A stretch of 60,360 nt of DNA, counting the filler, from Hausera hauseri (Eukaryota): assembly GCA_046269625.1 (NCBI GenBank). It is 12 parts of 12 records of this genome, joined end to end, with 100 filler letters (N's around TTAATTAATTAA, not from the genome) between each part and the next. Parts side by side here need not be neighbours in the genome. Positions count along the whole stretch, not along the records: positions 41,554 to 47,203 come from JBJURY010213522.1; 11 more parts are not named here. One strand, written 5' to 3'. Shown one piece after another: positions 16,605 through 59,224 of this stretch. The translations under genes were made by a program, and so were the position numbers. The notes beneath the pieces are model-generated. The model made no database searches and had not been told where the DNA came from. It worked only from the letters and a program-made list of their open reading frames with translations. The first letter of the stretch is position 1. Every line of letters begins with the position of its first letter.

Positions 16605-16661
16605 TTTCTTTCTTCTCTCGCAAATTTGTTGCTCCTTTAATACAAGGTATAACTGTTTTAA

Positions 16662-17700
16662 TTAGGCAATTTTATCCTCATCTTCCATTGTGTTGGTTTT
16701 ACTTTCTTTTAATTTAGATCTGATCTTTTGTTGTAATTTTTCAATTGTTTCTTCAGGCTCTGTATCTGTAGTTTCATGTTCATTATCCGTGTCAGATATA
16801 TTACCCACTATATCAACATTCTTCTTCTTTTGACTTGACTGTCCTTGATTAGGGCAAGTACGAGCCATATGTCCATATTTCTGACATGCGAAACATAATT
16901 GCTGTCCGTACTGATTGATCGCTGGCTTCCTCATTGCAGATTTTTGGGGTTGGTCTTGTTGCCACGTAACCTTCTTCTGCTGTTGTCACATTTGATTCTG
17001 AATTTTATAGAACTTTTTTTGAAAATTTTTCTTTGACTGACAGTTTTTCACCTTTTTATCATCAGTTTTGGGAGGCTTTTTAGTATTTTCTAATCTTTCA
17101 TAGTTTAATTCTATCTTCCTAGCCTTACTAACAGCTTCTTTATATGTGTTCGGATCTGCCACAATAATATAATTTTGTATTTCCTTGGTAACTTCATAGC
17201 AAAACTGAGCCAGGAGGGCGTCTTTTCTTATATCATCATCTGCATAGGCTCTCTGGGCCAACTTCTGAAGGGCATATGCATACTCCTGCACGCTTTCACT
17301 TTTCCTCTAACGTCGCCTGTTGAACTCTCCAATTCAACCTTTTTCTGATGGGTCTACTAAGAGTCTTTCTTCCACGGAGTCTTTAAGGCTAGCCCAATCA
17401 ACTTTATCATCCTCCGAAAGCTGAGCATAAGCACTGAGTGCTATTCTTTTAAGGTGTAAGGGAAGACGTTGCATCCTAAGCTCGTCTGACCATGCGAAGC
17501 TGTGTGAGTACATTTGATATTGCATCAAAAACTCACTATAATCTTGGTCCGATTTTCTTTCAAACTTATCCATCGGGAGGACCATTGTACCGGTTGTATT
17601 TGAACCAGTTTCTATTCCAGAGCTAGACATTGAGTTTCTTTCTATATTTGTGTTTGGTTCAACCAAAGGACTTTCGTCTGATTCAGAACTACTCCTTGCT
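16662..17700 (-). pseudogene. Ty3/Gypsy gag (capsid plus CCHC zinc knuckle), frameshifted
   Basis: 'WSDELRMQRLPLHLKRIALSAYAQL', 'VQEYAYALQKLAQRAY', 'LLAQFCYEV', 'CFACQKYGHMARTC'. Confidence 0.9.
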
Positions 17701-17768
17701 GAATCAGTGCGTGAAGTTGCAATATTAGTGTTAACTCTACTTCGAGTGTTATACGCCAGTGTGCCTCA

Positions 17769-17783
17769 TCACTCGGGGCACCA
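17769..17783 (-). promoter_or_regulatory. Primer binding site (tRNA-Met)
   Basis: Minus strand TGGTGCCCCGAGTGA, 1 nt after the LTR end TTATCA. Complementary to an elongator tRNA-Met 3' end. Confidence 0.8.
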
Positions 17784-17784
17784 G

Positions 17785-18093
17785 TGATAAGTTTAGAGGT
17801 TACGATTTATTGGTCTCTCGACCTTAAACTTATACTCTTTACTTAAAAGCTTGAGTCCTCTCTTTGCCTCAAGCTTGACTTATTTTATTATGGTAATCAG
17901 CGGCCTGTGGGTCCGACGAAGTCTAATTATTTATGATTATTTGACCTTAGTGTGCGAGTATCGTCAGGAGGTAAACTGACGTAGCTCACCCTTATTTATT
18001 AAATTTTTCACAACCGACCTTTTTAACGGAAGGTATACCAAAAATAGCGGGACCCCAAATTTATATTATTTATACCTATTACTATACAATACA
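17785..18093 (-). mobile_element. 5' LTR of Gypsy element
   Basis: Minus strand TGTATTGTA...TTATCA, followed by PBS and gag. Homologous to the solo LTR at 51000-51263. Confidence 0.75.
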
Positions 18094-19174
18094 CTTACTA
18101 ATAACTTTTAATCAATATAACAAAAAGAAAGAATCAAATAAAATTGTAATGAAAATCAAGATTATGTTCTAACAATCAAAATATGTAAGAAAAATGAATA
18201 CAAAATTACTTACGATTATCATAAACAACATTCATATCGTAACGAGTGTCAGAGTTATAAAACATTGTAGATGGTACAAATCATGTCAGTATTTATAGTC
18301 AACGATTATTAGAGAAGATTTACATAATAAATAAAAATCCATTATCATAAATTCAAAGAAAATAAAAGATCATTTCAGTTATTGTAAATCATGCAAAGAA
18401 ATTGAAAGTAATTTCCTTTTGTTTACTTTGTAATTTAATTTCCATTTCAGGTCGCCTGCTTTATTTATCTAGTGATTTTGTTTGCACATTTTTATATATT
18501 GCACAAGATTTAAATGTTATAAATATTTGGACATTTAAAAAACTCGATCAGTTTCGATTGTATTGTGGCCATTGTGATTTTTATTGAACGTTTTAATTTT
18601 GTATGTTTGGTCAAAAAAGTTTTTAATCTCTATTATGATTTACTTCGAAGGTGAATTTAATTGTAGAAAATCCATGTCATCGCTGGATTTTGGAAAACTG
18701 GAGTGCAAAAGGTGAACAGTCAACCTACAGTAACAAATCACATACACTGTATCCGTAAAGTGATGCTCGGTTGCAGATATATAGTCATCAAATAATGAAC
18801 AGCCCTGTGTGCTATAAAATATTCATGTTATCCTTGTCTGTACATATAAATTCCAAAGTGAATCGATTTTGGTGCAAAATCTTCATTCCTTTCAGTGTTA
18901 AGCACAATAAATATTAAAATACTGACTTTATAGAACTAAAAACTAAAGCGAAAGCGACGAAATTTATTTCGTCTTTAAGTAATCCTGCATAATATTGACC
19001 ACACAAATCCTTTTCCCAGAAATTAAAATGTATTGAGCGTAGTCATATCAAGTTAAGGAAGAATTATCATCCTCGAAAGTTACGTAAAATACTTTACCGT
19101 ATTCTACCTTGTTAGTCAGCAATAAAATACCTGTTTATTAATTATTTAACGTATGCAGTATTTCGCGATGCACA

Positions 19175-19923
19175 TGTACGATCCGACAAGTAATTTTTAA
19201 GACTGGCGCCATTTCCCAACAATTAGTGGAACCATCTGTTTAAAATTAACATCATTAGAAAGATACATTTTTCTTCTTTCTAACACGCCGTGGTTTATTC
19301 AAATCGAATGACAAATGAAATATTTTTAAATATATGTTGAAATTTTATCATGAAAGAAAGATCGGTCATTAAATTCTATGCCAAACTTGGTAACAGAGCA
19401 TCAGAAACATTCCAATTGATGCAAAGTGTATGGTGATGCTTGTTTAAATTGACCAAATGTTTTCGTGTGACGTAAACGATTTTTGGATGGTAGAAGGTCA
19501 CTATAAGATGACAAACATACGGGAAGGCCAATTTCAAGTGAAATACCAGAAATGATTGAAAAGTAGGTGATTTTGTTGCAAATGACCGCAGTGCTTAACT
19601 GAAAATAATGGAAGAGGCTCTAAATATCAACTGAGAGACGCTTCGGACCGTTCTTCACGGGAAAAACAAAGATCTATGCTAAATTTGTTCCATACACTTT
19701 TACGGATGAACAAAGTCAGTGAGAGTTAGTCACTCCGGAGACGTCGTTACAACACCCAGAATTGATCCAAACGTCCTAAAATCAATTGTTACGAGTGAAG
19801 AAATATGATGCTTCCAATACGATCGAAAAACCAAGTGTCAAGATTAGGAATGGAAGTCGAAAAATTCACCAGTAGCAAAAAACACGAAACGTGCCTTCAA
19901 AAATCAAAATAATGGTCATCATA
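19175..19923 (+). mobile_element. Mariner (Tc1/mariner) element with degenerate transposase
   Basis: 'IKFYAKLGNRASETFQLM', 'VYGDACL', 'DDKHTGRP', 'AKFVPYTFTDEQ' (WVPHEL-like), 'IVTSEEI*CFQYD' (TGDETW..YD). Many stops. Confidence 0.85.
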
Positions 19924-24574: not shown

Positions 24575-26400
24575 ATATCATCAACACTGAATTCATGTGT
24601 GTGCGTGCTTTATTCCAAATGCCAATGTCCGTACGCCCAACTTTTATTTTGCCCCACCCACTTATGCTTATCATCATTGCACGATAAAGCGACTTTTGCA
24701 TTGGTCACCGTATACAACTGGTACTCAATTGATCGGATGATCGTTTGAGATACAACAACATTTGATTGTCCTTCTTCTTCATAGATACGGCGATAATCAC
24801 AGTGGTTTATTTTTATCTAGGCCAACTGAACTCCTTTGACGCCCATTTTCGGCCCACCATCAGTTAAAAGGATATAACATTTTGGCCGCAGAAATAGCCA
24901 TTCCCGATTCGAAGCCGACTTTCACTTTCATCCTTGAAGCAGCCGATTTTGTTTGTGATGAAGTTGCTGTACAATGGACGATTCTGTGGGTAATTGGAAG
25001 TGTCCAGTAATCCGTCTGCCATCATTTTCCGCAGCAGTTTTTCGCGATTGATGTTTTCCATTTCCAAGAAAAAACTATCTGTGTCACAAGCAATTATATT
25101 GATCCTACATCCGCCGCATCCGCCGACAAACATTTGCCGGTATCGTGCCAAATTGCGATGCTGCAGCTCATACATACGCAACTTTCTCACATCCAATACC
25201 AATTGAAATATGTAACTTGGCCAGTCCAGTACGTCCTATTCCCTGTTTAAAAGTACGGCAACAAATCCATCGGCAATGTGCATTGATCGCCTAAACTGCC
25301 CTTGCTCGTGTATGTGACCAACCGCTTTTCGCTATAACAAAGACGTGCATTGAGCAGCTTTATCATATTCTATACCGTCTTTCCGTAGCGAGAATTGTTT
25401 TTTAGTTTGTAATGGTCTTTTTCAAACTTCGCACAAGCTGCAGCTCGTTTCTCCGAATTCCGACTGATGTACGGCTTGAATATCAGAGCCTGTGCGAATC
25501 GGATTGCGTGATGCAGCTATGTGACGTGTACACCCAACTGCATGTAAAATTTCAAAATACGCCAATAAACTATGTAGTTTTGGTTAGGTTCATTTGTCAT
25601 AAGCAGCTTTTTCACCTTCGAGTCCGCTGGACATTGGCTAATTGGTGCAACCGACAGTTCATCCAGAAAGTCATGCAGCTCATCTGGTACCACGAGATAG
25701 ACCTCCATCAGGTACATGATTGAGCTGTTTTCTGCCGTATCTGCTCTCGGCAGATTTTCCAGTATTGCGTCCAAGTCCTGCTTGTCAACCATCAATTTGA
25801 ATGAACCGTACGATAAGGTTTTGAAAGCTGCCAGCCGTATAGATTATTAATTTCAATATACAAAAGTGATGTAGTATTATCACTGGTTACGTAATGCTTT
25901 TTGACAAATGGCATGTCGCCACGAATACCAACATCAAACATTCTGTACATTTCCGGGTCTTGCAACATCTCAATATCCCGATATAGTGACATCAGAGCTG
26001 ATGCCCAACTCATTTCGGGTATTGAGTAAAAGTTGAGTGTCTCGAGTCTATCTTCTGCCAACACTTTAGCTCGAAATGTATGAAACACATCGGCTAACAG
26101 GTAAACATCCTATTTTAGATAGTGAAGCATGTACTCCAACCGGTTTCTACATCCAAGCTCTGTCCAAAACAACTGCGCTCTGTAATATTCGTCTTCTGTG
26201 ATACCGGGCCATTGCGGTGGTAATTCGTCTGTCATCTGAAGCAGCTCGTACGAAATCACAAAGTTATACGGTAATATACCTTTGCTACGTGCAATATGTA
26301 CAGGGAACTGAGTCAATGTTAGAGGCATATCTGGCAAGGCATTTATCAGCTTTGACAGAGATTCATTGAGAACTAATATTTGAGAATGATCAAAGAGTTC
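24575..26400 (-). pseudogene. Maverick/Polinton protein-primed DNA polymerase B (heavily frameshifted)
   Basis: 'SKGILPY', 'YLK*DVYLLADVF', 'GIRGD', 'LLYIEINNLYGW', 'KLKNNSRYGK', 'CDTDSFF', 'IGCFKDE', 'NDDK'. Confidence 0.9.
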
Positions 26401-29805: not shown

Positions 29806-30585
29806 TGTTAGTAGTTGAAGGTGGGCCCTATTCAACACCCAACTATAACAATAATGAAACTCGAATTTAATTTAGTAATTATAAGCAGATAAGTTGTAAC
29901 GTTCTCGTTAGAATGTTTGCACTATTTTATCTTGCGTGTTCTGCGTGCAGTGAATGCGTAAATTACAAAATTTTCGTCCTAACTATGAAGTTTAAATCGA
30001 TTTTAAAACTTAGTGTGGTGCAAGTCCCTCGTAAGGAGTGACGGAAAACTATAAGAGAATTTTACAATACAAATTTATTGACAAATAAAACAATATACCG
30101 GACGATACAGTCGACTTAAATTTTCTACAAAACGTTCAAGTCAATTGAATCTTTTTCGATAAAATTTGGTATCTATGAGCTTCACCGCTAACTCGGTAAC
30201 TGAAATATCGTTTCAAGATTTCTGGAATATAACTGATTATCTGAGCCTTTCCAATAGCTCGATCAATGCCAACTTATCTTCTAACTTGTTTATTCCAACT
30301 GATTTTGTACTGCCTTATATAGTCGGCAGTCATAAGCAATTTCATGCATAAATTTACATTTTATTTTTATAAATTTATTTTTCCGAAATTTCGTACAATA
30401 ATCAACTATTTTCTTTTCCAAATAAATATTTTCATATTTACATATTCACTACAATTTCTCTGATTAATAAAAATTTTCAATTTCTAACGTTAAACATTAG
30501 TTTCGGTTTTAGTTTCGGTTTCGTTTTTCAGTTTCGTTTCAATTTACATATTTACAAATTTACGGTTTACGACCATTCTACAACA
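29806..30585 (-). mobile_element. LTR preceded by polypurine tract
   Basis: Minus strand PPT AGGGAGGAGAAA (30597-30586), then TGTTG...TAACA. Internal TATATAA, TCAGTT and AATAAA. Confidence 0.65.
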
Positions 30586-30991
30586 TTTCTCCTCCCTGAA
30601 CGGCACTCTCGGATGCGCCTACTGCGTCAGTAGAGGTGCCGGGAAATCGGCGTAATCGGTCCATTCGTCCGCGTAAGTCCGCTTCCGAATCCAATTTGTT
30701 CAACGGTGATTGCAAGTCAATATGATAGGACGTAGTGGCCTGTTCGGGTAGTATCTCTACTATCTTCTTATTTTCTCCATTTGAGTAGTATCTTAGCCTG
30801 GTAGCTTCAGCTCTGCATACTGGGCAGGTCGTTTCCCCATTTTTCAGGGTCCACGTCTCTAGGCAGTACCGGCAATATTTGTGACTGCAATCTTTGTTGT
30901 CCAATACCACGAATCCTTGATAGAGATCCGCGTCGCATATGGGACATTCTTTTTTCTCCGCTGCATCAATATCCACAAGGTTTTTGTCCAC
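30578..30991 (-). CDS. RING-HC (C3HC4) finger, probably the C-terminus of a longer disrupted ORF
   Basis: 'CPICDADLYQGFVVLDNKDCSHKYCRYCLETWTLKNGETTCPVCR'. Same frame as ORF 31001..31192 across one TAG. Runs through the PPT into the LTR. Confidence 0.85.
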   Translation of the reverse strand: MDKNLVDIDAAEKKECPICDADLYQGFVVLDNKDCSHKYCRYCLETWTLKNGETTCPVCRAEATRLRYYSNGENKKIVEILPEQATTSYHIDLQSPLNKLDSEADLRGRMDRLRRFPGTSTDAVGASESAVQGGEML

Positions 30992-31000
30992 TTCTATTCT

Positions 31001-37401: not shown

Positions 37402-37468
<67 letters not shown>

Positions 37469-37478
37469 CACACACACA
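37402..37478. repeat. (CA)n microsatellite
   Basis: Direct observation. Confidence 0.98.
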
Positions 37479-38910
37479 AACAGCTTCCAGAGTGGTCCAT
37501 TCTAGTTTGATAGAGGGGTTTAGGACTGACAGAACAGTAACTTTTTATTTAACAAAAAGAGATCTCAACAATGAAAGACTTGTCCATCCAGAAACCGAAT
37601 CTGAGATTAAAACATTGATTCTGTTCCTTGGAATTAGTTAGAGGTGGAAACAATTTGAACTCATTTGTTCTTTCTTGTCCAACTGATCTGTCAAAGTTTG
37701 AGGAATGTTTAATAGGAAAGCTGGGCTTTTGGTGACAGATGTGAATAAAAACATCAGGGTAACCTTCAGAGCAGACGATCCAGAGGTGTAAGGATCTATT
37801 TCTACGTGCTCACTCTGTTATTTAGCCTCTTTTCTCCTGCGTTTAAAGTTTCCAGCAGCAGATGAGAAACAATGCAGCTTTTACACATTTGTTGCTGAAT
37901 AAATTTACCAAAAAATTCATGAGACAACAGAACAAAATATAGCAATTATTTGGCTCAGATCAACACTTTACATCTCGACTTTGATCTCTGAAGGCCTCAG
38001 TTTTTGTTCTCTCATTCTCAACGTCAACCCTCCTCATGCAAACGTGCCCTGACTCTGCTGGAAATGTCAGAGAGAAAGAGGGAGAAGCGCTGCCTGTTGT
38101 TCAAATCTTGACAGTCAGGAGGAAGCAGGAGGATCTGTAAGCCTCAGTACAGCTGATGCTGCAGGAGGAAAGCAAATCACAGAGACCTTATTGTGAGTCT
38201 TTCAATGTGGTCTCACAATAAAAAAATAGAGAAAAGCCAGTATTTGTTGTGTAGAGTTAATAAAAACACTGACACAGCTCAGCTCAGATTACACTGGTAT
38301 ATCAGTGTGTATCAACTGCACAGTCAACAATAATCCACAGAATCAGCTTGATAATAAGCCTGGTTGTGGATGTCACCAGAGAGAAATAAAACACTGTCTT
38401 CTGAAGTGCCCTGATTCAACTTTTGTCTCTGGAAAACAACACGGATCCTGTCAGTTACTGTCAACAAGCAGCTCCTCCTCCTGGACCGGTAGGACGCGAG
38501 AAAAGCCACGCGCCTCTGCTGCTGTCACACGCTCAACAATCACCCATCAATCAGCTCTGGACCTGCTCCCTCCCCTCGGCTCAACTGACTGAACGTCACT
38601 CAAACAGGTCGACACACATCTGCAAACACAATAAAAAGCTCCTCTTCCCCTGGAAATCCTCACCACAAAGTGCGTTGATTGCTAAAGAAGATTTCAAAGG
38701 TTTGGAGCTTACACTCACACTTGGAGCTTAGTTTTCAAGGCAACAATTAGAAGAACTTTATTGGAACTAAAGGGCATAAAAATACGACGTTTGGTTTCTT
38801 TTTAGTGGGAGTGGAAGACGCGTTCAGATGCAGAAACTCAAGTTATTGCGACACGCCCCTGTGAGTGGCGTGTCACCTGGACGGTTAGTCACACCACATT
38901 CCACCTCACC

Positions 38911-38913
<3 letters not shown>

Positions 38914-38969
<56 letters not shown>
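38914..38969. repeat. (CA)n microsatellite
   Basis: Direct observation. Confidence 0.98.
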
Positions 38970-38971
<2 letters not shown>

Positions 38972-40228
38972 GATTGTTCCAACTTCTACTGTAACGACTC
39001 TTTCACAACAGATGTTAACAGGTCAAATGTTTTGGTTGCAAAACATAGTTTCCCCTTGAAACTTTGTGACATTTTCTTTTACATCTTGTAAAGAAACCCA
39101 CAGATGTTCTGTGCTCTAACTGTAGATGTAAAGACCAGCAGCTGAGCAGAGGAGACAAACATCACCGTCCTATCTGTGACCTCTGGAATTATTGACAAAA
39201 GTTAAAAATAGCTTCAACATCTCCCAGACCTTTAAACTGGAGAACCAGAGAAAAAAAGCCTCTCTCTCGTGTTTAATCTAAGCTGGAGCTGCATCTCATC
39301 AAGACCAGGTGTTCATTATGTGTTTTAGAGGTGTGTAAATGTGTGCTGGGGTGCAGGACTGGGGGTGCTGTTTATCCATGGGCCACTGCTGGGAGGGACC
39401 TTCAGAAAGCCTGGAAGAGGTTTGGAAATTATGTGTGAGAAATATGGATCAAGTGAGCATGAGGGCCCACCTGTTTAATACACAGGACTTAGAGTTTCAT
39501 AATACACACCTGAATGTGTGTGTGTTGGGTTTGTATGTGTGTGTGCCCCAGGGCAATGCACCTTCTTACACTTTGAACTATCAGCTCAGACTGATAGTCA
39601 TTCAACCTCAGTCCTGCGGCGCCACCTACTGATTCTCTCTGTTCAGTAAAAGTCAAAAGACCAAAAGAAGTGGTAAACTGTCTACATGTGGAAACTTTTC
39701 ATCTCAATCATCCAGTTTATTGACCCGGACCCTCTCCTTTCCAGGTGACAGGGAGCTGGTGCTCATATCCAACAGTCACGTGCATGTGTTTGATCTTTGG
39801 GGAAAAACCAGAGAAAACTCCCTCAGAGAGAACATGCAGATGTTATCTAGAAAGGGAGGCAAACCTGTGATCTTCTTACTGTGAGGTGACAGCTCTAACC
39901 ACTGGTCCACTGCTCCGTCCCATATCATTCACAAGAATTATTGGTAAAAAGCCCATTTATCTTCCAAACTAACGTATTCTAACTGTTAATAAAAGGCGAC
40001 GAATCAAAACCTTGAGCCAGAGTTTCTTGTGATGTTCCAAAGTGACTTTTGAACAACAGCTCTGGATTTTTGAAGGTTTTCAAAGCTTTTCTTTGGACTT
40101 TGGCTGTGATTCCAATGACTGAAGATAATTAATGTGATGTAATGTGATGTAATTAATGTAATGGTCAGATATCCTGGGCCATCCCCACTTGCCTGTCCTG
40201 ATTCCCGTTCTTTTCCACTCCTGTAAAT

Positions 40229-40566
40229 AAATGGACTATGGTAAATGGACTGAACTTATAGAGCGCTTTATCAAGTCCTTCCGGACCCCAAAGCGCTTTA
40301 CACTACAGACATTCACCCACGCACACACACATTCACACACTGATGATGGCAAGCCACATTGTAGCCACAGCTGCCCTGGGGCGCACTGACAGAGGCGAGG
40401 CTGCCGAGCACTGGCGCCACCGGACCCTCTGGCCACCATCAGTAGGCAAGGTGGGTGAAGTGTCTTGCCCAAGGACACAACGACTGAAGGCGGCTGGACG
40501 GGGGATCGAACCGGAGACCTTCCGGTTCCTGGACGACTCCCCTAACCACTCCACCACAGCCGCCCC
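40229..40566 (-). mobile_element. tRNA-derived CORE-type SINE with LINE2-like 3' tail
   Basis: Minus strand A box TGGTGGAGTGG, B box GGTTCGATCCC, core GTGTCCTTGGGCAAGACACTT, tail AAAGCGCTCTATAAGTTCAGTCCATTTACCA. Confidence 0.8.
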
Positions 40567-41453
40567 ATAGGGCTCTCATGCTACATACTGACGTGAAAGT
40601 TCATTCCTCCCAATGATAAGGACTAGAAAAGAGGGAGACACAAAGAAGACAAACAAGCAGGTAAATGAAAAATATCTACCTCATTTTGAAAAACTGACCT
40701 AATTTCAATTAGTCGTGCCATCACCTCATTTCTTGCCTATCGTGACAGGCATGGGCAACAACAAGGAAAGACATAAGAAACCCAATAACTGTTGACTGCT
40801 GATCACTAAAACTTTTAAAACACACTCAAACATCAAAGAAAACTTCCTGTTCTCCAACACAGTTGTCCTTTTAAGTGAGGTGAAAAACATCTTTCATCTC
40901 TAAGAGCTGCTTTGAAACAAAGAGGTAATTTTTCTAATTAGCAGGTCCCACATTCAGCTGTGTCTGGTTAGTTTAATCTGCTACAGGTTGTCTTGTACAT
41001 CTAAAAAAAAAAGTGCTGGTGCAAAACAATCCTATAATATTCATCTGAGAGGTAAATCACTGCTAATCTAAGAAAGTTACAACAACACTAGCCATAATTT
41101 AGCTGATGATACTGAGCTAAAATTTTGTGTGGTAGTAACTGAGCATCATTTCCAACACATACTCTGAGTACCACACATTGTGTGATAGTTTTACTTAGAA
41201 TTTTTGCATCATCTGTTGAAGTTAACCTTGTTTGTCTGTTAGCAAAATATCTCTTGAACCACTTGGTAATTATTATTGAAACTCCGAGAAAGTAATCACT
41301 GGATGCATGTCTGTAACTGATTAACTTGTGGTCTCACCAGGGTTCAACTTGGCCACCAAAGCTAATCGACACTAACTAACACATAAGTGGCTATGATTCA
41401 GTCAGTTTTACAGATGTGGAGCTGACACCTGGTGTGGTAGTTGCTGAGTGTCA

Positions 41454-41553: not shown

Positions 41554-41999
41554 ATCTGTAACGTTCTCGGTTTTCGCAATTATCAATTTCGCTTTTCAAA
41601 GCTCTCAGTTTTCACTATTCACAGTTCTGAGTTTTGACTTTACGTTTGGCTATATATACAATTCTGCTTGTTGTTTTATTTTCCTTTTTCCAATATTGAC
41701 AAATTTTCTTTTACTTAGGAATCCATTAAAATCAATTTAGAATTCAATTATTCATTATTTACAACCAATTTAAAATCCAATTGTCCATTGTTTACATTCC
41801 ATTATCACCAATTTTAAATTCAATCCATTATTTACAATTTAAGTCACTTTGCTGACTTAGTGGATTATTTACATTACGCCACACTTTGTCAAGACTTTAG
41901 ACAAATACAAGCGCGATTACAACTATGAAGAAAGCTCAACTCGAAGAATTAATCGAACGACAACGGACCTTAACATTAAGTAAGACAATCAGAATTTCT

Positions 42000-42895
42000 T
42001 CAGAAAAAGCTAAAGATAAACTTATCTAACAAATAATCAGATTTGCCGAACAAGATGAAATACCAAAAGGACGTCAGCGAAAGAAACACTTACAAAGACA
42101 CGGGCATAAATATTATGCATCGAATCAAGATAATATTTTATATTACGAACGAAAAGGACGGAAACTAGTAGTCATTCCAAAAGGATTACGAACAGAAGTA
42201 TTAATTGCTGAACACGATTCACATTTAGCTGGACATATGTCATGGAAGAAAACATTAAAAAGGATATTGAATAAGTATTACTGGCCAAGCGTTTATATTG
42301 ATGTAAAAAACAGGGTGGACGCTTGTGAAATCTGTGCCACGAAACAGAAGAATGTGAAAACTACATAGCAGAATTAAAACCGATCGACGTGTTAGACAGA
42401 CATATGCAAGCCATGTCCATGGATATAGTAGGACCTTACCTACAACTCACAAAAATAACAAATATATTTTAACGTGCCTGGATCGCCTAACACACGTCGT
42501 GGAATTAATAGTACTAATCGACCAGAGGGCAAAAACTTTAGAAGATACAGTAATAAGAAAAGTTTTCTGTAGATACGGACTCCTGATCAAATATTAACCG
42601 ATAGAGGAAGAAATTTTATAAGCAAATTATTCGATAAAATTTTTACGATTTTTGAAATCGAACGACTCACCACCACCGCATATCACTCTCAATGCAACGG
42701 AATGGTCGAACGTATGAATGCAACAGTTTTACGAGTCTTATCGACCGTAGTCGCGAAGGATCAAAAGGACTGGAATAAATTCCTAGAAAGAACGCAATTT
42801 GCTATTAACACGACTCCACATCCTGCCACAGGGTTTAGACCATTTTTATGATGTATGGATGCGAAGCGATATTATCTACGGACTTAGGAATTGTT
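42000..42895 (+). pseudogene. Ty3/Gypsy integrase (H2C2 zinc domain and catalytic core), disrupted
   Basis: 'VIPKGLRTEVLIAEHDSHLAGH...YYWP...CEIC', 'MDIVGP', 'ILTDRGRNF', 'TTAYHSQCNGMVERMN', 'INTTPHPATG'. Confidence 0.9.
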
Positions 42896-44889
42896 ACGAC
42901 CCCTTAAACAACATTTTAGTCAAATCCCTCAAACAACATTTTAGTTGATGTACCATATGGTGATGACTCTATGGTGATGAAACTGCACCTTCAACGGACA
43001 CCTTCAATGGATTGAATGTAACAATGTAATTGTGACGTGTCACATTTGTAACTTTTGACGATGAAATGCACATTTTAAACGAATATTGATTTAAACATTT
43101 TGTACATTTTAATTGATTAAAAATTTGTTTCAATTTTCTTTTGTGTTACCCTGTTAAGTCCCACATGATGGACATTCCTATTTTTCCTGTCTTTTGTACA
43201 ATTAATGTATCCCTAGCCTAAGTGGGTAAACTGAAAAGATATGTTATAAAAATGAATGAGTAGACTGAAAAGATACGTGAAATAATACAATGCATAAAAA
43301 TATAATTTCGAATTGAAAAATATGTGAAATCGAATAATTTCAAATAAGGAATAATTTATCGATATTGGAAATTTGAATAATTATAATCGAAATTGAAAAA
43401 ATGCAATAATTAAAAAAATTGAAATAAGAAAATTAAAAGTACCATTCTAAAAATGGAACTAAACGACATGGTGTCGAACGACCCAGTATAAATACCTGTA
43501 CAATAAACACTCAAAAAACTCTCTTGAACCAATTCAATTTCATTCGACAAACTACGGATTAGGTTAGATCCTATGATAATTTACAGAAACCATTATTATA
43601 TCGTTAGGACAATGGCTGAAGGAAATAATGTCAACTACAACAGTTCATCAGAAGGAGTATTAGGTAATTATCTTTTCAGATTACTCGTGATTATATTTTG
43701 TTTTTCGTTTTTGGTTATGTAAATTTGTATTCATTAATAAATATTTTAAAAAAAATTAAATCGAATGTCAGCATTGAAGCAGGGTAGCGCTGGGTGGTGC
43801 GTTCTGATCAAATCAGAAAATCAGATGGCGATGTTATGAAAGCGAAGATTATTGGATGACTGAAAGTTTCTTGGAACACCCGATGAACATGAGTGTATGA
43901 TGAAACTGATGGAAGACAAAAAAAATTGATAAATGGAACCCAGAAATTATGATGAGCCGATAATGGAACAAGTCAACGCTCGATGATCGACTGACGTCTA
44001 ATTCTATTAAATGTTTCGGAAATTGCTGGGCAGTATCGTAAATAAATACGATTATGTTGTTGTGGTTTAATCGTAAGAGAGAAATCTATTTATAGTACCG
44101 AACTTATGTACAAAATTTGGTGTGGAAATGGTTAAGTCTAGATCATTTTATCTCGACCGAGTTTTAGGAGATTGCCTGCATTACAAGAGGTCAAATCAAG
44201 GATAGGTCAGCGGGACTTGTGGAAGGATAAATTTATGATAGTATACGTCTTTGCGGTACTAATTCAATGTGCAGTCTTGGAAAACGGTGTCGTTTACCAA
44301 CATGATGATCGCGTTTGTGAAGTTTAAAGTCGAGTTGCATGCACTTAACTGAATTAGATGATATTGTATATGTAAAACGAAAATTGCTATATTTATACGT
44401 TAGATAACTGTATTCGATATAAATAAAACCAGCCATGTTTATATTTAAATTATAATGTGCGGTTTATATCGAGAGCGAATGTAATTTAGAATTTAAAATC
44501 AATATAATTAATTTTTTGTGGTAGTGTTGTCTTTGCTGACTAATTTCTTTTTGTTAGTTGTTCATTGATTACGTCTATATTGATTTAAATTTATAATTTA
44601 TTTATCAAAGAAACTATCATTGTAACGACCAGCATTCAACCGTGAAAATATTCATGTGTTTATAGTGGCTATGATCCTTTTTCCATATCTCTAAAATTAG
44701 TGATCATTAGAAACAATGAAGCCCGTTGTAAGAAGATATCTTGGGCAACATATGAAGCATTAGGAAACCCTGAATATTTGCCTGACTTTGAAGAAATAAT
44801 CGATCATTGGGTCAATATTGGTTAGATGATAGAACAAATGAATCTACAGATCCAGATTGTGGAGCGAGTGGAGGAATCATGATGATCAG

Positions 44890-44990
44890 AAGAAGTGTAC
44901 ACATTTTTCAGCCCGTGTGAGTACCTAAACTGTTGAACTTTTGCAATGAGCTAAAGGTCTAAAGGCGACCCATGTGCCGACGATATGAGG
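44890..44990 (+). pseudogene. Degenerate IAP-type RING remnant
   Basis: With one frameshift reads 'FSPCEYLNC*T-FCNELKV*RRPMCRR', compare FxPCGHLxCCxxC..CPMCR. Confidence 0.35.
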
Positions 44991-45000
44991 TTATTTTAAG

Positions 45001-45191
45001 AAGGAACATCTGTCTACCTTCAACTCACGAAATCCTTCAGTTATTAGAGACACTCGAGAATGACACTATCAAACGAAGGAATATGGTTAAAATATGGGTA
45101 ATAAAATCATCGGTAGACGTGAGCTCATATGGATTTATATGTTAGGTACCATTTAAGGCTAATAAGTGTATTAACCCCTGTACCACCAACA
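45001..45191 (+). mobile_element. LTR 3' end (U5-like)
   Basis: Ends CCAACA shortly before a PBS. Shares ordered blocks (atctgtcta, cggtagac, aggtac, aagtgta, caccaa-atata) with minus-strand 29290-29181. Confidence 0.5.
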
Positions 45192-45198
45192 TATAAAC

Positions 45199-45214
45199 TG
45201 GTGCCCCGAGTGAG
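45199..45214 (+). promoter_or_regulatory. Primer binding site (tRNA-Met)
   Basis: TGGTGCCCCGAGTGAG. The first 15 nt are identical to the PBS at 17769-17783. Confidence 0.8.
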
Positions 45215-45280
45215 AACACCATATTGATAAAACAATTAATAACTTTAAAGCAAAAATCCTTACTTAAGTTTGAAATTCAG

Positions 45281-45582
45281 ATGATGACAGATACGCACCA
45301 CTGCGATGTGAAATATGCTGTGGACTGCTCGGAAGAAATTACGCATTGCTGCGATGCACGCACATTATGTGCGTCAAGTGTGCAGATCGATGGCTATCGA
45401 AGAGCCAAACATGCCCTTTCTGCCGAAGAAAAACAAGTTCATATCAGTGCCGAGGAGCCACAGTGGTGGTAATTCTAGACGATGAAGAAGATGAGGAAGA
45501 TGAGCAAGAAAATGAAATGGAGGAAGATCCGAATGAATTATATGTATTAGGGCCAAATCAACTTGTACAGATGCCCATTTGA
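45281..45582 (+). CDS. RING-HC protein with acidic tail (cassette 1)
   Basis: 'CEICCGLLGRNYALLRCTHIMCVKCADRWLSKSQTCPFCR...DDEEDEEDEQENEMEED'. No ATG before the RING; acceptor ttcag| at 45280. Confidence 0.8.
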
Positions 45583-45607
45583 TTGTATATTAAATACAGT
45601 TGTATAG

Positions 45608-45732
45608 AATCAAGTTGTGATAGTTTTGAGGCCGTTTGAATTAGAATGACTGATGAACTAACTGATTTAGACGAACAATATGTGTATAGAAAGCAGTTTG
45701 TAAAAGTGAATGGGATAAAAGGAGGGGAATGA
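45608..45732 (+). pseudogene. Small cassette with one premature stop (cassette 2)
   Basis: Acceptor tgtatag| at 45607, reading 'ESSCDSFEAV*IRMTDEL...KGGE*'; AATAAA at 45749. Confidence 0.3.
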
Positions 45733-45794
45733 TAAATAATATCGATTTAATAAATTAAGGTCTAAGAAATTGGATTGAGGAATATTGATTTTAG

Positions 45795-46030
45795 CTTGCA
45801 TCATCTGTAGAAGATTTCCGGAAACTTGGGATAAGGAGGACAATCCCTGCCCCCTATGTCATTTGGTGGAGAAATTAAGTCAACCAGAAGATTTATTCGA
45901 GTGCAGTTATTGCGGAGAAGAGGTTAACATAGGCTTGATGACGTTGGACGAAGATTACCGTCTATTATGTCCTGTGTGTGATATGACGTGGAATGATCTG
46001 GAGGAAATTGACAAATTAATTAACCTATGA
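45795..46030 (+). CDS. Protein with four CxxC pairs, double zinc ribbon-like (cassette 3)
   Basis: CIIC..CPLC..CSYC..CPVC; acceptor ttttag| at 45794. Confidence 0.65.
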
Positions 46031-46095
46031 AATTTGTAATAAGAATAAATAAATTGATTATTATACTTAGTGAAATTGGATTTCGTTGATTGTAG

Positions 46096-46508
46096 AAAGA
46101 TGCCCCATCTGTTTGGACAACATAACGGGTGAAAGGACAGTGTTACCATGCGGACACATATACTGTCAACCTTGTATCAATACCTGGCTAGAAGAACAAA
46201 GCAACTGTCCTTGTTGTCGGCGAGCCTGCACCTTTTGCTGGATGTGCCTCAAATTGGTGGCAGATAATCTAGTGGTCCTGTCATGCCGTCACGTATTTTG
46301 CCGACCGTGCATTTTGGAGTACCTGAGTTGTAATCAGTATTGCCCTTACTGTCTAGAAACGGTGGATTTCTATGTTGAGGAGGGAATCATTACCTATTTG
46401 AATATTGACAACCGTCCATCCATAATATTGGTAATTGATGAAGACGATGGCAGTTGGCCAGAAGCGTGGAGAAATCCACAACCTTATACTATATTGGATA
46501 TAGATTAA
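46096..46508 (+). CDS. Tandem double RING-HC protein (cassette 4)
   Basis: 'CPIC..LPCGHIYCQPCINTW..CPCCR' directly followed by 'CWMC..LSCRHVFCRPCI..CPYC'; acceptor ttgtag| at 46095. Confidence 0.85.
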
Positions 46509-46558
46509 AAAATTAAATAAAATTAATTATAGCAAATTGTTTATTTCATTTTCTTAAG

Positions 46559-46866
46559 GTTTACCCCGTACTGTGAATCCATCAACTATACTGAGCCATG
46601 GGTTCCCAGCATCTTGCCAAATCAATGATATAAGCGTATACACAACATACAACCCAAATGGAAATTTCACTCCTGTGGGAACCCAATGCACAATCTGTTT
46701 GAATGGGTATTCATTGGACCCAGTAGAGTTGGTCCCATGTAGGCACCAATTTTGCAGGCAATGTTTAAAAGAATGGTTCTCCATTGGAATTACATGCCCA
46801 GTATGCCGTGCTGACAATAAACTGTTTCGATACAAACATAGTTATTATACCATAAAAAATTTGTAA
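46559..46866 (+). CDS. RING-HC protein (cassette 5)
   Basis: 'CTICLNGYSLDPVELVPCRHQFCRQCLKEWFSIGITCPVCR'. No Met codon in the frame; acceptor ttcttaag| at 46558. Confidence 0.85.
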
Positions 46867-46904
46867 ATAAAATAGTGTTCTTGTTTGATTAGGTTATATT
46901 TTAG

Positions 46905-47203
46905 CCGAAATGCAAAGGATAAAAGAATTCAAACTTCAAACATCTGGACAGTACGAACATGCTAAGCCAGTACAATCTAATATCGCGCAGTATATCTTAT
47001 ATTATCAGAATAGACAATTCGGACCAGCATCATTTGTTAAAAGACTGGTAAGCTACTCTAGAGCCATGGTGCTGGACAACTCCATGAGAGATGCACAAAA
47101 CAGAATAACATCATTCCTGAAATATTCAAATTTACCTGTTTCGGAAGAACTAGCAGAAGCATATGCTAAAACCGGATTATTCAGAACCATAACAGGACAG
47201 ATC
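46905..47203 (+). CDS. Probable BIR-domain (IAP-like) protein, cut by contig end (cassette 6)
   Basis: 'MRDAQNRITSF...AEAYAKTGLF' resembles the BIR start RLxTF..LAxAGFY; acceptor ttttag| at 46904. The zinc ligands would lie beyond the gap. Confidence 0.5.
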
Positions 47204-48400: not shown

Positions 48401-50999
48401 CTTATGACCTACCTCATGATTGTCCAGATACCCTACGGCACAATCGGACCAATCTTCCTAAGTTTAAGTTTACTTGAAAGCTCAGGTGAGAAGTTAACAC
48501 AATACAGTTACTCTGTCCCAGAAATTGTGGCAAATCATTCATTATTAACCTACTTATAACTGGAGCTAACGACATAGAAATTCATAACATACTTTGGAGA
48601 AGAAATAGTTTTAGATCAGGTCAATGCCCAATACTTTTTGATGGTAATGAAGGAAGTATGTTAACAAGAGCAGATAATAAATACCAGCACAGTACCAGAT
48701 TATAAAAAACCAATGATAATAGCAAGTAACTAATGTCCATTCTGGCACATTAGCTGTTTGTACGATGCGTTTGTGGTCAGATAATTTTTGATACTATATA
48801 CGCCTATACAGTTTTCAATATCTCAACTAGGCTGACCCTGATTTACAGCGATTACTTGTAAACAAGAAAAAATTATTTAAATAAAACTTTAGACTCGAAT
48901 TTTTATTAAACAAAAAACTAAATTGAATAATACAATAATAACGAAATAAGACAAACATAAACATGTAGCAATTCCACCATACGATGCTTCGATTTTCTCG
49001 ACTGCATTTCGAATTTTTGACAAGTGGACAAAACCTTTACACTCAGTCAACCTCACTAAAATCATCCACCAACAAATCTGCAAACTTTATCATATCTGGA
49101 TCAACACCCGGCACAATTTCATAACTGCCACTACACGCACTACCATTGGCAGTCACATGCGCATCCTCCGGCGTAAGCAGATAAATGTTCATTAACAACA
49201 CTAACAATTTCAGCACATTGAGAACCTGAATGATCATTATCATTGTCATTTTCTCGAAACGCTTCTGGCAGTTTTTCTGTATAGCTAATCAAATATGGAT
49301 TTTCATATTCTGAATTGACATGGAATCCACCGTCAGCATTAACAACGTTAAAAAACTGTTTATCACACAGTTTTAGGATTAGTGAACAAATCTGCACAGT
49401 TAAATAAAACATCACTAGGATCTGATGACAAAATACGGAACCAGATTCATCTATAACAAATTCATATGCAATAAAACCATAACACAAATTTATTACCTGT
49501 GAGATAGCATCCACTAAATAGAACTGAGTTGCCACTATATTTTTTGAAAACATTGTGTAATAAATTTATTTTACAATCATTACCAGTGGTGTTGATACCT
49601 AAAATATATTTTACTGTACAATTCTACTGTACATGCATTTTATGACATGCATTTTGTGATATCCGCATTGTTCGACACGTATAACTTTGGTACATCCGGT
49701 GTAATATTTTCATGTTAGTCGTGGTTAATTAAATTCTACGAAGATATAACTACCTTCTTCAGTTTTCATTTGGCATGATGTATCAACATTAATCCATGAC
49801 TTGTCACAGAAGTCCTATTTTTTATTTAGTCAGAACATGAAGAAAATGCTATAAGTTGAATATTAGACGAATATTAGCACGAGAAAAGGACCGACAATTT
49901 TGTCAAAGTTCAAAATTTCTAAACGTAGTGGGGGATATTTGAACAAGTGCAAAATACTGTTACATTTAAAGGCTGCAACTGCGTTATTTAGGCATGAAGT
50001 ACACTGAAGAAAAAAGGAATGACCATGTTTATGCTTGTTATTTTATAGTGTATTTTAGTACCTTATTAAAGTTATCCGCCACAGGTTGTATTGCAAAATA
50101 AAATTACCCCAAAACACCACTAATATAATAATAAAAAAATCCATTCTTAAATTCCTCATATTCTTAAAACAAAATTAAATTTGTAACAAAATAATTCGGG
50201 AATAAATAATTTTCAATCAAAATATCGAAATGCGCGATATCGTAATCAACACAGTAGCCTCATTTATTGCATTTATTCTAACGAACTATAGTATAAATTG
50301 ACTACGCTACTTTCAATATTATTTACAATATTATTTCATTATGCATTTAAACAAATATCAATTTTCTTTTTGTATACATGCTTACAAAGTATTACAAAAG
50401 TATTACGAAAGTTGGATTGAAAACAATGATCGCTTGTAAACTGTGATTTTTTGAAAAAAAAACATTCGTATATATACTTTCTTTTACTGTAAATCTGGAT
50501 TTTTTTATAACAAATAGTCAGACAGATTTGCAAAATATAATGTTGATTAATAATGTGAAAAAATTGTTGAACATAATTAAAGATGAGCAAATGTCGATGT
50601 CAACAAAATAATTCCATCGAAATTATGCAAGTAGCTTGGTCGGGGATTGTATAAACCTGTGGTAATCACAGCTAGACGAATTAGCATTTTTCGTTATTCA
50701 ACTTGTACTTTTCTGTACTCTTTTTATTCTAAATTCATTTAATCTCATTTTACGTGTGATCTTATACAAGTATACATATATTGGAATTTTTCTTAGTATT
50801 GACACAAATTATTTTCTTTCGATGGCAACAAAAATGATTGAAAACTGTAAGCTTTTGTACATTGGTATATTATTTTTAATCTTGATTGTCTTTTGATTCT
50901 TATTTGATATAATATCATTTATTTCGTTTGCTTTTATTAAACTTTATACGTTACTTTGATTTTTCTTTAATCCACTATAAATGAAGTACGTCAAGTATA

Positions 51000-51263
51000 T
51001 GTATTGTAATAGGCGTAATTAATCAACAAAAAGTGTCCCTCTTTTGGAATTCCGGTGTTAAGAAACCGGTTGTTTAAAATCAAATTAAATAACAGGGATA
51101 GTTCGTCAGTGTACTTCCTGAACGATACTCGCATAGCAACGTTAAGTAAAAACCCATAACTAAGTCATAGCAACCCACAGGTTGCTACTCCAAAATCTAT
51201 GTAATAGTTTAAGTTTGAGGTCGTGAGATCCAAACGTTTTCATAATCTCAGTGTCCTAATACA
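51000..51263 (+). mobile_element. Solo LTR
   Basis: TGTATT...AATACA inverted termini. Shares 'cgtcagt-tac-tcctga-cgatactcgca', 'acccacagg' and 'taagttt-aggtcg-gaga' with the LTR at 17785-18093. Confidence 0.8.
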
Positions 51264-56531: not shown

Positions 56532-56665
56532 TATCGTACAGAACTTTATTTGAACTATGAATGGCATGGTGTTATGTATGACAAAATTACAATATTTACA
56601 TTATTTAAAAATAATATTTGTTCGTAAATTAATATTTTCTGCACAAATTTTATATCAGATTGAAC

Positions 56666-59224
56666 ATGCCTAACCAAGTCGAGATAGAAAATATCATGAA
56701 CCTATTTTTACAGCTCATCGAGTCCATGCTTGAATACGAAGATGCCCATTGGTTCAGACTGCCCGTTGACCGAGAAGCTTATCCCCAATACTACCAGTTC
56801 ATTAAAAATCCCGTATCCCTAAAAGATATAACCGAAGTCATCAAAAGTGGCCATGTTACTGATCCCTGGCAGGTTGTCAATCTATTTTGGTTGATGTTCG
56901 ACAATTGTCATAGATTCAACAGTAAGTTGAGTGCTGTTTATCGAGCATGCATGAAAATGGAAGACGTATTCGTAATCAAGGCTACCGAAATCATGACCAA
57001 AAGTGGATATTGCTGTGCAATGAAATATGTTTATGAACCACATTATTTGTTCTGCTGCACAGACGCAGCCTGTGCAATAAAGCCAAATGCTGTTTATTAC
57101 AAAGTTGTTGTGGACGGAACCGAATTCGTGATTTGTGATAAATGCTACCGAAAAAGTCAAAATGATGTTGAGTTGGTTGAGTCAAAACGTATTGAAAAAT
57201 CGCTCTTTATCTTATCGAAAAATGACGTTCAAACTGACGAATCGTTCGTCAAATGCATTAAATGTGGAGTAAAATGGCATCAGATCTGTGCTCTATCTCC
57301 GATGAATGATGAATTTGAGTGTAACTCGTGCCGAGATGCGAATTCAACTCGTTATCTGAATCGACTTCGATCTTCAGAGATGATCCCTCTGTCACAAATG
57401 AGTAAGTACATCGAATTCCGAGTTAATGAATACTTGAAACTCGAGGCACCCGGTGCGAACAAAGTTATAATTCGGGACTTTACGAAGAAGAACTGTAGTA
57501 TCGAATTCAAGCCGAAAATGGGCGAGAGATTCCAGGAGAAAAATTTGGCGAATATTAATTATACATCCAAGGCCATTTATGCTTTTCAAGAAATTGATGG
57601 TTTGGATGTGGTATTCTTTGGATTGCATACTCAAGAATTTGGCGAAAATAGCGGGGGGCCGAATAAATTGTGTATTTATATTACATACATCGATTCCGTC
57701 CCGTTTTTCCAACCCAAAGACTGCAGAAGTCAAGTTTACAAAACCATTATTCTGTCGTATTTGGACTTCATGCGTCGACACAGTTTTCAAACTGTCCATC
57801 TGTGGGTTTGTCCAGCGGATCCCGGAAATGATTACATATTCTTTCGACACCCAGCAGACCAGAAAATGCCAGATACCGAACGATTGAAGAAATGGTACAA
57901 GGATTTGTTTCAAGGCGGGGTCAATAAATCAATCATCAAAAAGCAAACAAATATTCTGGACTACTATAGACAATCGGATGTTACGAACATAACAGATATG
58001 CCGTATTTTGTCGGCGACTTTTGGCCGGATAAACTAGAAGAGTTACTAACTGAAGTCGAAAAAGACGTCGAATTTACAGAGGACGCTCAAAGCACCTTCA
58101 GTTTGAATGAATCGTTTTGCTCTGGTCGTAAGCGAAAATCAAGATTGAATAGGGATCCGAAACGACGGAAGATTGATCTGTCGAACGTTGAAAACGAGAT
58201 CCACAATCGATGTTTTGAATTAATTGAACGAGTCAAAGATCATTTCATAGTCGGTCAACTGAATTCGGAAAAGAATATCGATGATGAACAATATGACTTT
58301 CAAAATGGCCGAACGTGGAATTGTGATGTGATGGAGTCGCGAGTGTCGATGTTGTTCTTTTGTCGAAATACCAATTTGGAGTTTTCGTCACTACGTAGAG
58401 CGAAATATTCGACTATGAAATTGATTGATGAAATTTTCTCGGAGAACCGAACTAAATCCTTCTTTTGTAATGTTTGTTTGGGAGGAGATTTTGTTCATCG
58501 ATACCATTGTGATGTTTGTGATGATTATGATGTGTGCGAGATGTGCGTGGTAAAGAACGAACATGAGCATCAGTTGAGAAATGTCGAAAAATCAGAAACC
58601 GGAGTTAGATTATCTGAGTTACTTGTTCATAGCACCAATTGTATTGATGATTATTGTGGAATGAAGTACTGCGGGCAAATGAAACAATCCTTGGAACATG
58701 CAAGCAAGTGTACAGATACTCGATGTTTGGTGTGTCTACAGTTGAACATGGTTATGGCTGTCCATGTCCATCATTGTAGAGTACTCAGCTGTACCATTCC
58801 TCTGTGTATATCTCGAAGATGTGACAAAGAAAATGTTGTGAACCAAATAAAGTTGGATAATCAGAATGGTATAGAAACAAAGGTCGAACCATCAGATTTC
58901 CCACTGAATCTTACAACTCTAAGAAGCCTATTAAACCTCGAAAAGTCTCGTTCCAGAAGGTGTTTCTGCAAGACCCTCTTTGATGAAGAAAGTCACTTTT
59001 GTAATAAGTGCAATGACAATGAAGGAACAGAGTTAAAGAAGCGAATTCGAGTTGTTTCATTAAACGGTGCCACACATCCATTACAAAACAATGCTGTCCG
59101 ATATCAATTGGATTTGTGTAGAGGAGTTAAACTTCAGTCAGATAGACCGATTTTTAGAATCATTCGCAGGTCAATTAGAAAAAATTTTGACGATTGTTCT
59201 TTAATCATTGCTGTTCGATCGTGA
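56666..59224 (+). CDS. CBP/p300-like histone acetyltransferase (bromo-RING-PHD-HAT-ZZ-TAZ2), uninterrupted
   Basis: Bromodomain 'WFRLPVD..YYQFIKNP..LMFDN..FN', PHD 'HQICAL', HAT 'YITYIDS', 'HLWVCP..GNDYIF', 'LKKWY', 'PYFVGDFWP', 'EFSSLRRAKYST', ZZ 'YHCDVCDDYDVC', TAZ2 'LVHSTNC'. Confidence 0.95.
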   Translation: MPNQVEIENIMNLFLQLIESMLEYEDAHWFRLPVDREAYPQYYQFIKNPVSLKDITEVIKSGHVTDPWQVVNLFWLMFDNCHRFNSKLSAVYRACMKMEDVFVIKATEIMTKSGYCCAMKYVYEPHYLFCCTDAACAIKPNAVYYKVVVDGTEFVICDKCYRKSQNDVELVESKRIEKSLFILSKNDVQTDESFVKCIKCGVKWHQICALSPMNDEFECNSCRDANSTRYLNRLRSSEMIPLSQMSKYIEFRVNEYLKLEAPGANKVIIRDFTKKNCSIEFKPKMGERFQEKNLANINYTSKAIYAFQEIDGLDVVFFGLHTQEFGENSGGPNKLCIYITYIDSVPFFQPKDCRSQVYKTIILSYLDFMRRHSFQTVHLWVCPADPGNDYIFFRHPADQKMPDTERLKKWYKDLFQGGVNKSIIKKQTNILDYYRQSDVTNITDMPYFVGDFWPDKLEELLTEVEKDVEFTEDAQSTFSLNESFCSGRKRKSRLNRDPKRRKIDLSNVENEIHNRCFELIERVKDHFIVGQLNSEKNIDDEQYDFQNGRTWNCDVMESRVSMLFFCRNTNLEFSSLRRAKYSTMKLIDEIFSENRTKSFFCNVCLGGDFVHRYHCDVCDDYDVCEMCVVKNEHEHQLRNVEKSETGVRLSELLVHSTNCIDDYCGMKYCGQMKQSLEHASKCTDTRCLVCLQLNMVMAVHVHHCRVLSCTIPLCISRRCDKENVVNQIKLDNQNGIETKVEPSDFPLNLTTLRSLLNLEKSRSRRCFCKTLFDEESHFCNKCNDNEGTELKKRIRVVSLNGATHPLQNNAVRYQLDLCRGVKLQSDRPIFRIIRRSIRKNFDDCSLIIAVRS

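Follow-up and report, generated by a model that had tools for sequence, protein, structure and literature searches.

A 60,360-nucleotide (nt) stretch of DNA from Hausera hauseri (GenBank assembly GCA_046269625.1), hereafter the window, consists of twelve contigs joined via eleven 100-nt spacers. On one of them, a contig of 5,650 nt (positions 41554-47203, JBJURY010213522.1) whose 3' limit falls inside the last cassette, five short coding cassettes follow the primer binding site (PBS) of a retrotransposon with long terminal repeats (LTRs). In order, they encode a RING domain, a double zinc ribbon-like protein, a tandem RING, a further RING, and the start of an inhibitor of apoptosis protein (IAP). 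This cassette architecture is real, multi-copy, and unusual. Its favored explanation, with a probability of about 60%, is that the cassettes are alternative last exons, each predicted to be joined by phase-1 splicing to a single short coding leader within the LTR. An earlier note on the same DNA had proposed alternative terminal exons behind a shared leader. That arrangement remains the best fit to the sequence, as judged by acceptor phase, steps in guanine and cytosine (GC) content, the early position of the domains, and the layout of diverged copies, with splicing as its predicted part.

Acceptor Sites and Cassette Boundaries

The cassettes, numbered 1, 3, 4, 5, and 6 after the earlier note, begin behind AGs at 45280, 45794, 46095, 46558, and 46904, respectively, all of which are in phase 1. 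The six AGs originally listed are all present at their positions, and each stands in phase 1 relative to the frame behind it. An acceptor score combining a T-rich tract with YAG, applied between the preceding stop codon and the start of the domain, selects exactly the five AGs of cassettes 1 and 3-6, and five open same-phase picks arise in 6 of 20,000 dinucleotide shuffles. The cassettes sit in three different reading frames and are separated by non-coding spacers, the GC content of which is 12-23% versus 38-44% in the cassettes. The interval of the GC change-point includes the AG in all five cases, loosely for cassette 6. In cassettes 1, 3, and 4, moreover, the AG is followed by the first Cys at a distance of only 9, 1, and 2 codons, respectively. 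The five A(A/T)TAAA hexamers noted previously (45589, 45749, 46044, 46516, and 46866) are all present.

A sixth cassette, 'cassette 2' (45583-45733, plus strand), was considered as an exon and rejected. It runs for nine codons to an in-frame stop, has no recognizable domain, continues the frame of cassette 1 beyond its stop, and contains non-triplet indels in other copies. This stretch is likely the 3' untranslated region (UTR) or a decayed tail of cassette 1, and the count of cassettes is thus reduced from six to five.

Other copies of the element were compared by aligning contigs from four public DNA runs (X1-X4) to the contig stretch. A search of public runs listed five that contain the stretch, with no RNA run among them, a listing without bearing on expression. 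The numbers of aligned contigs, which include those aligning to the integrase part, are 5154, 779, 121, and 59, respectively, and 3775 of the 5154 in X1 are less than 95% alike to the window copy. X1 and X2 also contain pieces identical to the window copy, may be its source, and therefore are not independent of it. Diverged contigs span the region from the PBS to cassette 1 (29 differences in 203 nt) and also the spacers ahead of cassettes 3, 4, 5, and 6. Copies 80-95% alike retain the layout, and their spacers align with 0-5 gaps. Because diverged contigs bridge both the PBS and the spacers, the layout is family-wide and does not represent one decayed open reading frame (ORF); the suggestion that other copies might show one continuous ORF is thereby rejected. 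In addition, a common variant at 46891, among those listed, abolishes a competing AG upstream of the cassette 6 acceptor.

Start Codons and the Predicted Leader Exon

In the window copy, no in-frame ATG precedes the first Cys of cassettes 1, 3, 4, and 5, and cassette 5 is devoid of any Met. This lack of start codons had been pointed out before; it stands for the four cassettes here, with the reservation that many other copies have an ATG in cassette 5. The region from the PBS to the first AG is free of ATGs, which places the start in the LTR. Downstream of the TATA box, the ATGs at 43573 and 43612 come first; they share one frame, and both reach the donor at 43664 in phase 1, an agreement that by itself is a 1-in-3 coincidence. 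This donor is among the three top consensus scores in the LTR and is the only one of these with an AG exon end. The promoter core falls in a block that is locally well covered by other copies (bin 43444-43632), and none of the listed leader variants affects the ATG or the donor, which is weak evidence. A donor inside the LTR and upstream of its poly(A) signal, here at 43736, resembles the situation in foamy viruses.

The earlier note had placed the leader at 45094. As a first choice, a leader at 45094/45098 was rejected; it is in phase 1, but its donor is outside the top 14, and many ATGs lie upstream of it. The ATG at 43612 with the donor at 43664, 1.5 kilobases (kb) upstream, is more likely. 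As a speculative observation, a possible 45-nt intron in the 5' UTR (43563-43607, TAG/GTTAGA to ttag/GACAATG, slashes marking the splice points) would remove the ATG at 43573.

According to the favored model, transcription would begin downstream of the TATA box at 43487, and the leader starting at ATG 43612 would be joined from donor 43664 to a single acceptor, skipping what remains of the LTR together with the PBS. Termination of the RNA would occur at the AATAAA following the chosen cassette. The T-rich tract behind each AATAAA would double as the next acceptor, and cleavage and splicing would thus compete. Spliced RNAs would be devoid of the PBS and would thus serve as mRNA only. Cassettes 5 and 6 could alternatively initiate at their own ATG after splicing.

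Table 1. Features of the element carrying the cassette array, with positions along the window.
Feature	Position	Strand	Basis
Broken Ty3/Gypsy integrase	41901..42891	+	Pfam: Integrase_H2C2, E 4.4e-18; rve weak
Candidate 5' LTR, about 2.3 kb	42892..45191	+	TGTTACG start precisely at the integrase break
Predicted promoter core (TATA box 43487, AATAAA 43502)	43487..43507	+	Sequence; putative function
Predicted shared coding leader exon	43612..43663	+	ATG in ACAATGG context, 17 codons plus 1 nt; putative
Predicted donor TAG/GTAATT	43664	+	Phase 1
PBS, tRNA-Met type	45199..45216	+	15 of first 16 nt equal to the Met PBS printed in the available part of PMC1084362
Cassette 1: RING-HC and VVVIL, resembling a SUMO-interacting motif (SIM), then acidic run	45281..45582	+	zf-RING_2, E 4e-9; motif scan
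Cassette 3: four CxxC pairs, double zinc ribbon-like	45795..46030	+	Sub-threshold zinc ribbon matches (Pfam)
Cassette 4: two tandem RING-HC and SIM-like IILVI, then DEDD	46096..46508	+	Two RING stretches, E 1.3e-18; PDB sequence matches; motif scan
Cassette 5: 42-codon N-terminal stretch and RING-HC	46559..46866	+	zf-RING_2, E 1.7e-12
Cassette 6: N-terminal part of IAP-like protein	46905..47203	+	37% identity to P0001
Four canonical AATAAA	45749, 46044, 46516, 46866	+	Each 38-51 nt ahead of the AG of the next cassette

The Host Element

The array belongs to the 5' terminal part of an LTR retrotransposon that occurs in many copies and is likely of the Ty3/Gypsy type. Upstream of it, the integrase carries stops and frameshifts and is interrupted at 42891. 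Past this position, other letters follow in 25 contigs of X1 and 3 of X2; in the window itself, TGTTACG follows from 42892. We read this junction as a younger LTR element nested within an older integrase, which appears to be part of the interrupted element. The 3' end of the candidate LTR lies at 45185-45191, which leaves a spacer of 7-13 nt before the PBS. The contig contains one candidate LTR only, and no direct repeat of it occurs within the window; any partner would be located beyond the contig.

The tRNA-Met type of the PBS, as called in the earlier note, is upheld by a match of 15 of the first 16 nt at 45199. An element at 17783 (minus strand) served as a control. Its PBS agrees with that of the array element in the first 15 bases, its LTR ends carry comparable motifs, and its spacer measures 14 nt. 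Immediately behind the PBS comes gag, with a CCHC knuckle, and no cassette array is present. Because this independent gag-bearing element has a near-identical PBS and similar LTR ends, the assignment of the PBS and of the candidate LTR of the array element is sound. The control element is placed on the contig 15489-19923, with an LTR of about 440 nt and with gag in broken frames. For the array element, the absence of gag stated in the earlier note holds only for the 2 kb behind the PBS, up to the contig end at 47203; gag-pol is likely located further downstream of the array.

Within the candidate LTR, GC-richer blocks alternate between 43736 and 45100 with AT-rich stretches holding AATAAA (43736, 44041, and 44422), and two AGs, at 44077 and 44700, are followed in phase 1 by open frames of 41 and 40 codons, respectively. 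Some contigs skip such blocks, for example 44059-44417. These blocks could be older cassettes. A RING profile run against three frames of the candidate LTR gave no match, nor did Pfam in 43736-45100; decayed RING cassettes in the LTR are thus unsupported.

Sequence scans for relatives of the locus returned little. A metagenome scan with the PBS pattern gave nine loci, all GC-rich and none similar to the contig, and ARAGORN identified no tRNA at the PBS match in the five of them that were scanned. Genome scans gave nothing matching, and Rfam returned zero matches. Among the viral scans, five were empty or gave short and weak matches, and the other two gave generic RING matches only.

Protein Domains and Predicted Functions

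The effector domains named in the earlier note are largely borne out. Pfam cut-offs are passed by the RING of cassettes 1, 4 (twice), and 5, and the zinc ribbon of cassette 3 remains sub-threshold. Cassette 6, truncated by the contig end within the BIR and before the BIR zinc ligands, has no Pfam match itself. Its assignment, proposed earlier as a BIR protein, is supported through a homologue, a protein of 403 amino acids designated P0001, which is its single relative among 1.84 billion representatives. Residues 3-100 of cassette 6 align with residues 1-96 of P0001 at 37% identity, from the same Met. P0001 contains a BIR (E 6.5e-6) and a C-terminal RING (E 5.9e-14), both above cut-off, and leads to IAP clusters in an atlas search; the same search with cassette 6 gave no usable match. 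Word-index protein searches returned nothing for cassette 6 (among longer proteins) or for cassette 4, and P0001 residues 1-330 retrieved only P0001. In exact look-ups in a protein collection, 0 of 20 window ORFs were present. A single-sequence fold of cassette 3, with a predicted local distance difference test score (pLDDT) of 62, had no Foldseek match at E 0.001, and that of cassette 4 (pLDDT 36) was unusable.

SUMO is required for transposon silencing in animals. In cassette 1, VVVIL is followed by DDEEDEED, and the motifs of both cassettes 1 and 4 fit the SIM consensus, hXhh or hhXh plus an acidic stretch, as given in the available text of PMC8616421. The same source gives VVVI, present in cassette 1, as the SIM core of PML, and describes RING plus SIM as the composition of SUMO-targeted ligases such as ICP0. 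Such motifs arise in 5% and 4% of shuffles. The pairing of RING with a SIM-like motif suggests that cassettes 1 and 4 encode SUMO-targeted ubiquitin ligases, which would act against SUMO-dependent host silencing. Cassette 5 would provide an additional E3 ligase, and cassette 6 would be an apoptosis inhibitor.

A Trp and a basic residue after the last Cys are hallmarks of active RING ligases. They are kept in the RINGs of cassettes 1 and 5 and in the first RING of cassette 4 (4a), and both are absent from the second (4b). Cassette 4 may therefore combine an active RING with a partner RING in one chain.

Taken together, the products could form a counter-defense kit, with one promoter, one start exon, and five or more phase-locked last exons. 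In such a kit, cassettes would be plugged in, gained, and lost, and would provide SUMO-targeted ligases, a single-chain RING-RING ligase, a zinc-ribbon protein, and an IAP. This broader proposal is tentative, with somewhat less than even odds.

Points against the Model and Alternative Explanations

Several observations weigh against the model of phase-locked last exons. The acceptor rule was fixed after the sites had been seen and was, for that reason, tested in 192 variants. Phase 1 is recovered for all five cassettes in 76 of them and for at least four cassettes in 142. In 116 variants, one or more cassettes are missed, mostly because the TAG at 46070 is favored for cassette 4. The poly(A) hexamers are individually common in such AT-rich spacers, where they arise in 6-75% of shuffles, as the earlier note had cautioned, and alone they are weak evidence. 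SIM motifs are degenerate and frequently false, according to the accessible part of PMC8616421. Furthermore, the comparison of copies rests on 40 of 925 variant entries and 12 of 71 indel entries.

Start codons add to these points. Cassette 6 contains an in-frame ATG (46910), at the point where P0001 also begins. Position 46573, five codons into cassette 5, is GTG in the window copy and ATG in many copies, with A accounting for 38% (X1), 60% (X2), 100% (X3), and 100% (X4) of the aligned depth. Two of the five cassettes thus need no shared start codon, and the initial claim of one start codon for all is restricted to cassettes 1, 3, and 4. Likewise, individual ATGs, which had been named beforehand as counting against a shared leader, were found for cassettes 5 and 6 and not for the other three. 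Both GTG and ATG are common at 46573, and this codon may be dispensable.

The predicted leader is also subject to doubt. Two other donors tie with 43664, and further phase-1 donors occur at 44073, 45098, and 45146. The 3' half of the leader is in a bin with far lower copy depth than the cassettes, and the leader variants among those listed (n = 4) comprise two silent and two replacement changes.

Among the alternatives, the one that survives best, and is itself unlikely, regards the cassettes as passive cargo, that is, last exons of host genes that were captured singly with their acceptors and poly(A) sites and are not expressed as a working set. Transposons have been proposed to capture genes by means of splice signals, as outlined in the Fig. 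1 legend of PMC6431247, and both the cassette 2 stretch and the possible older LTR blocks appear decayed. However, the five cassette frames, about 1.55 kb in total, are open beside a broken integrase, the layout persists across copies 80-95% alike, and separate captures would not agree in phase.

Next in rank, and improbable as well, is an operon-like array, in which cleavage frees the next cassette and the latter receives a trans-spliced leader, either the host spliced leader or an LTR-made RNA ending at the AATAAA at 43736. Nematode operons combine coupled 3'-end formation and trans-splicing with spacing as tight as the 38-51 nt found here between AATAAA and the next AG. Cassettes 5 and 6 would be able to use their own ATGs, and the AATAAA at 43736 lies 72 nt downstream of donor 43664. 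Nevertheless, a non-coding host leader fails since cassettes 1, 3, and 4 are without ATG. A spliced leader of the flatworm type, which ends in AUG, would impose phase 0; cassettes 3 and 4 would then be open for no more than 27 and 9 codons, respectively, and cassette 1 would be read in a frame that does not encode the RING. In addition, a cis donor in the right phase is present upstream.

Slightly less probable still is that the cassettes are translated individually, each using an AUG or near-cognate codon of its own, from RNAs that remain unspliced and terminate at one poly(A) site after another. MDG1 elements are described, in the available text of PMC11952523, as expressing a pair of small ORFs ahead of gag without splicing, separated by a poly(A) site, and in the array an in-frame TTG or GTG is found ahead of cassettes 3, 4, and 5, with ATG available for 5 and 6. 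Such translation is opposed by the many ATGs upstream in the LTR, by the first TTG, GTG, or ATG of cassette 1 falling inside the RING, and by spacers of 38-65 nt, too short for promoters; it also leaves the shared AG phase unexplained. Finally, a single polyprotein ORF that decayed in the window copy is largely refuted and highly improbable: Burro elements have RING-related and BIR motifs in one giant ORF (available text of PMC6431247) and the frame of cassette 1 carries on into the cassette 2 stretch, but the 12-23% GC spacers contain stops in several frames, the cassettes occupy three frames, and alignments of diverged copies run across the spacers with 0-5 gaps.

Other Features of the Window

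A RING-HC ORF (Pfam E 6e-9) is located at 30578-31000 on the minus strand. It resembles cassette 5 around the last Cys pair, forms the last part of a long broken ORF, and is followed by AT-rich DNA containing an internal repeat; this RING-HC ORF may belong to another element with RING cargo. An uninterrupted ORF of 863 codons at 56633-59224 is CBP/p300-like (bromo, RING, PHD, HAT, ZZ, and TAZ) and apparently intronless. Another uninterrupted ORF, of 1139 codons, occupies 5645-9064 and has a weak dsrm match only. Two related broken ORFs on different contigs, 8-682 and 24643-25334 (tblastx E 4e-29), have no Pfam match and look like remnants of Polinton-type B-family polymerases.

Repeats are common to several contigs, namely 2488-2872 with 11645-12407 (69-77% identity) and 17937-18096 with 50993-51149 (71%). 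These common repeats suggest that several contigs share one AT-rich, repeat-rich genome. The contig 37402-41453, with 43% GC and CA microsatellites, looks unlike the others, and the contigs beside the array contig seem to be of mixed origin.

Comparison with Known Systems

In its proposed working, the array resembles two well-known arrangements, with no homology to either. The adenovirus major late unit joins one 5' part to alternative acceptors with separate poly(A) sites, with a non-coding leader and an AUG of its own for each gene. The Drosophila host genes lola and mod(mdg4) combine a coding common part with variable zinc-finger last exons, alternative acceptors, and separate poly(A) sites.

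Accessory genes of LTR retrotransposons are known singly, paired, or fused into a polyprotein. A shared-leader array of last exons in an LTR retrotransposon was not found described in the literature, as far as titles and the beginnings of abstracts show, in a search that mostly did not extend to subscription papers. For rotifer elements, the accessible part of PMC5408684 mentions extra ORFs and not RING.

The MDG1 group (412 and mdg1, with sORF1 and sORF2) is similar in having short accessory ORFs before gag and an internal poly(A) site that gives rise to a short RNA. It differs in that there are two ORFs, unspliced in long reads and encoding different protein types, as reported in the available text of PMC11952523; the array has five cassettes, three of them without a start codon, and splicing is predicted for it. 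Cer1 of C. elegans offers another partial likeness, since its regulator CERV is produced from a spliced mRNA that borrows upstream exons. Unlike the array, Cer1 yields one product, from gag-frame exons and a downstream ORF, and no array of alternative last exons is described in the part of PMC10309623 available.

Viral ligases of the HSV-1 ICP0 type likewise place RING and SIM in one protein of a mobile element and act against SUMO-dependent silencing (PMC8616421, available text). The RING plus SIM products of the array, of about 100-140 amino acids, are predicted from sequence motifs. If the proposal is true, these cassettes represent a concrete route by which an animal retrotransposon could disable SUMO-dependent silencing. 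Additionally, a new effector would need only an acceptor, a domain, and a poly(A) site and could do without a further promoter or start codon, an economy like that of complex viruses.

The giant gypsy elements Burro/GYPSM1 of planarians, above 30 kb in size compared with the 5.65 kb of the array contig, are gypsy-type LTR elements with RING-related, BIR, and ubiquitin-pathway cargo, and one relative has an upstream accessory ORF. Their domains are, according to the available text of PMC6431247, mainly inside one polyprotein of about 4,900 amino acids. By contrast, and by description only, the array consists of separate short cassettes with their own stops, poly(A) signals, and same-phase acceptors. 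The IAP of Burro1 (B-IAP) has been reported to protect stem cells (PMC13465017, available part), which provides a precedent for a gypsy element that carries an IAP, and the mode of expression of B-IAP may bear on the novelty of the array. The IAP cassette would extend what Burro1 exemplifies, namely elements that help their host cells to survive.

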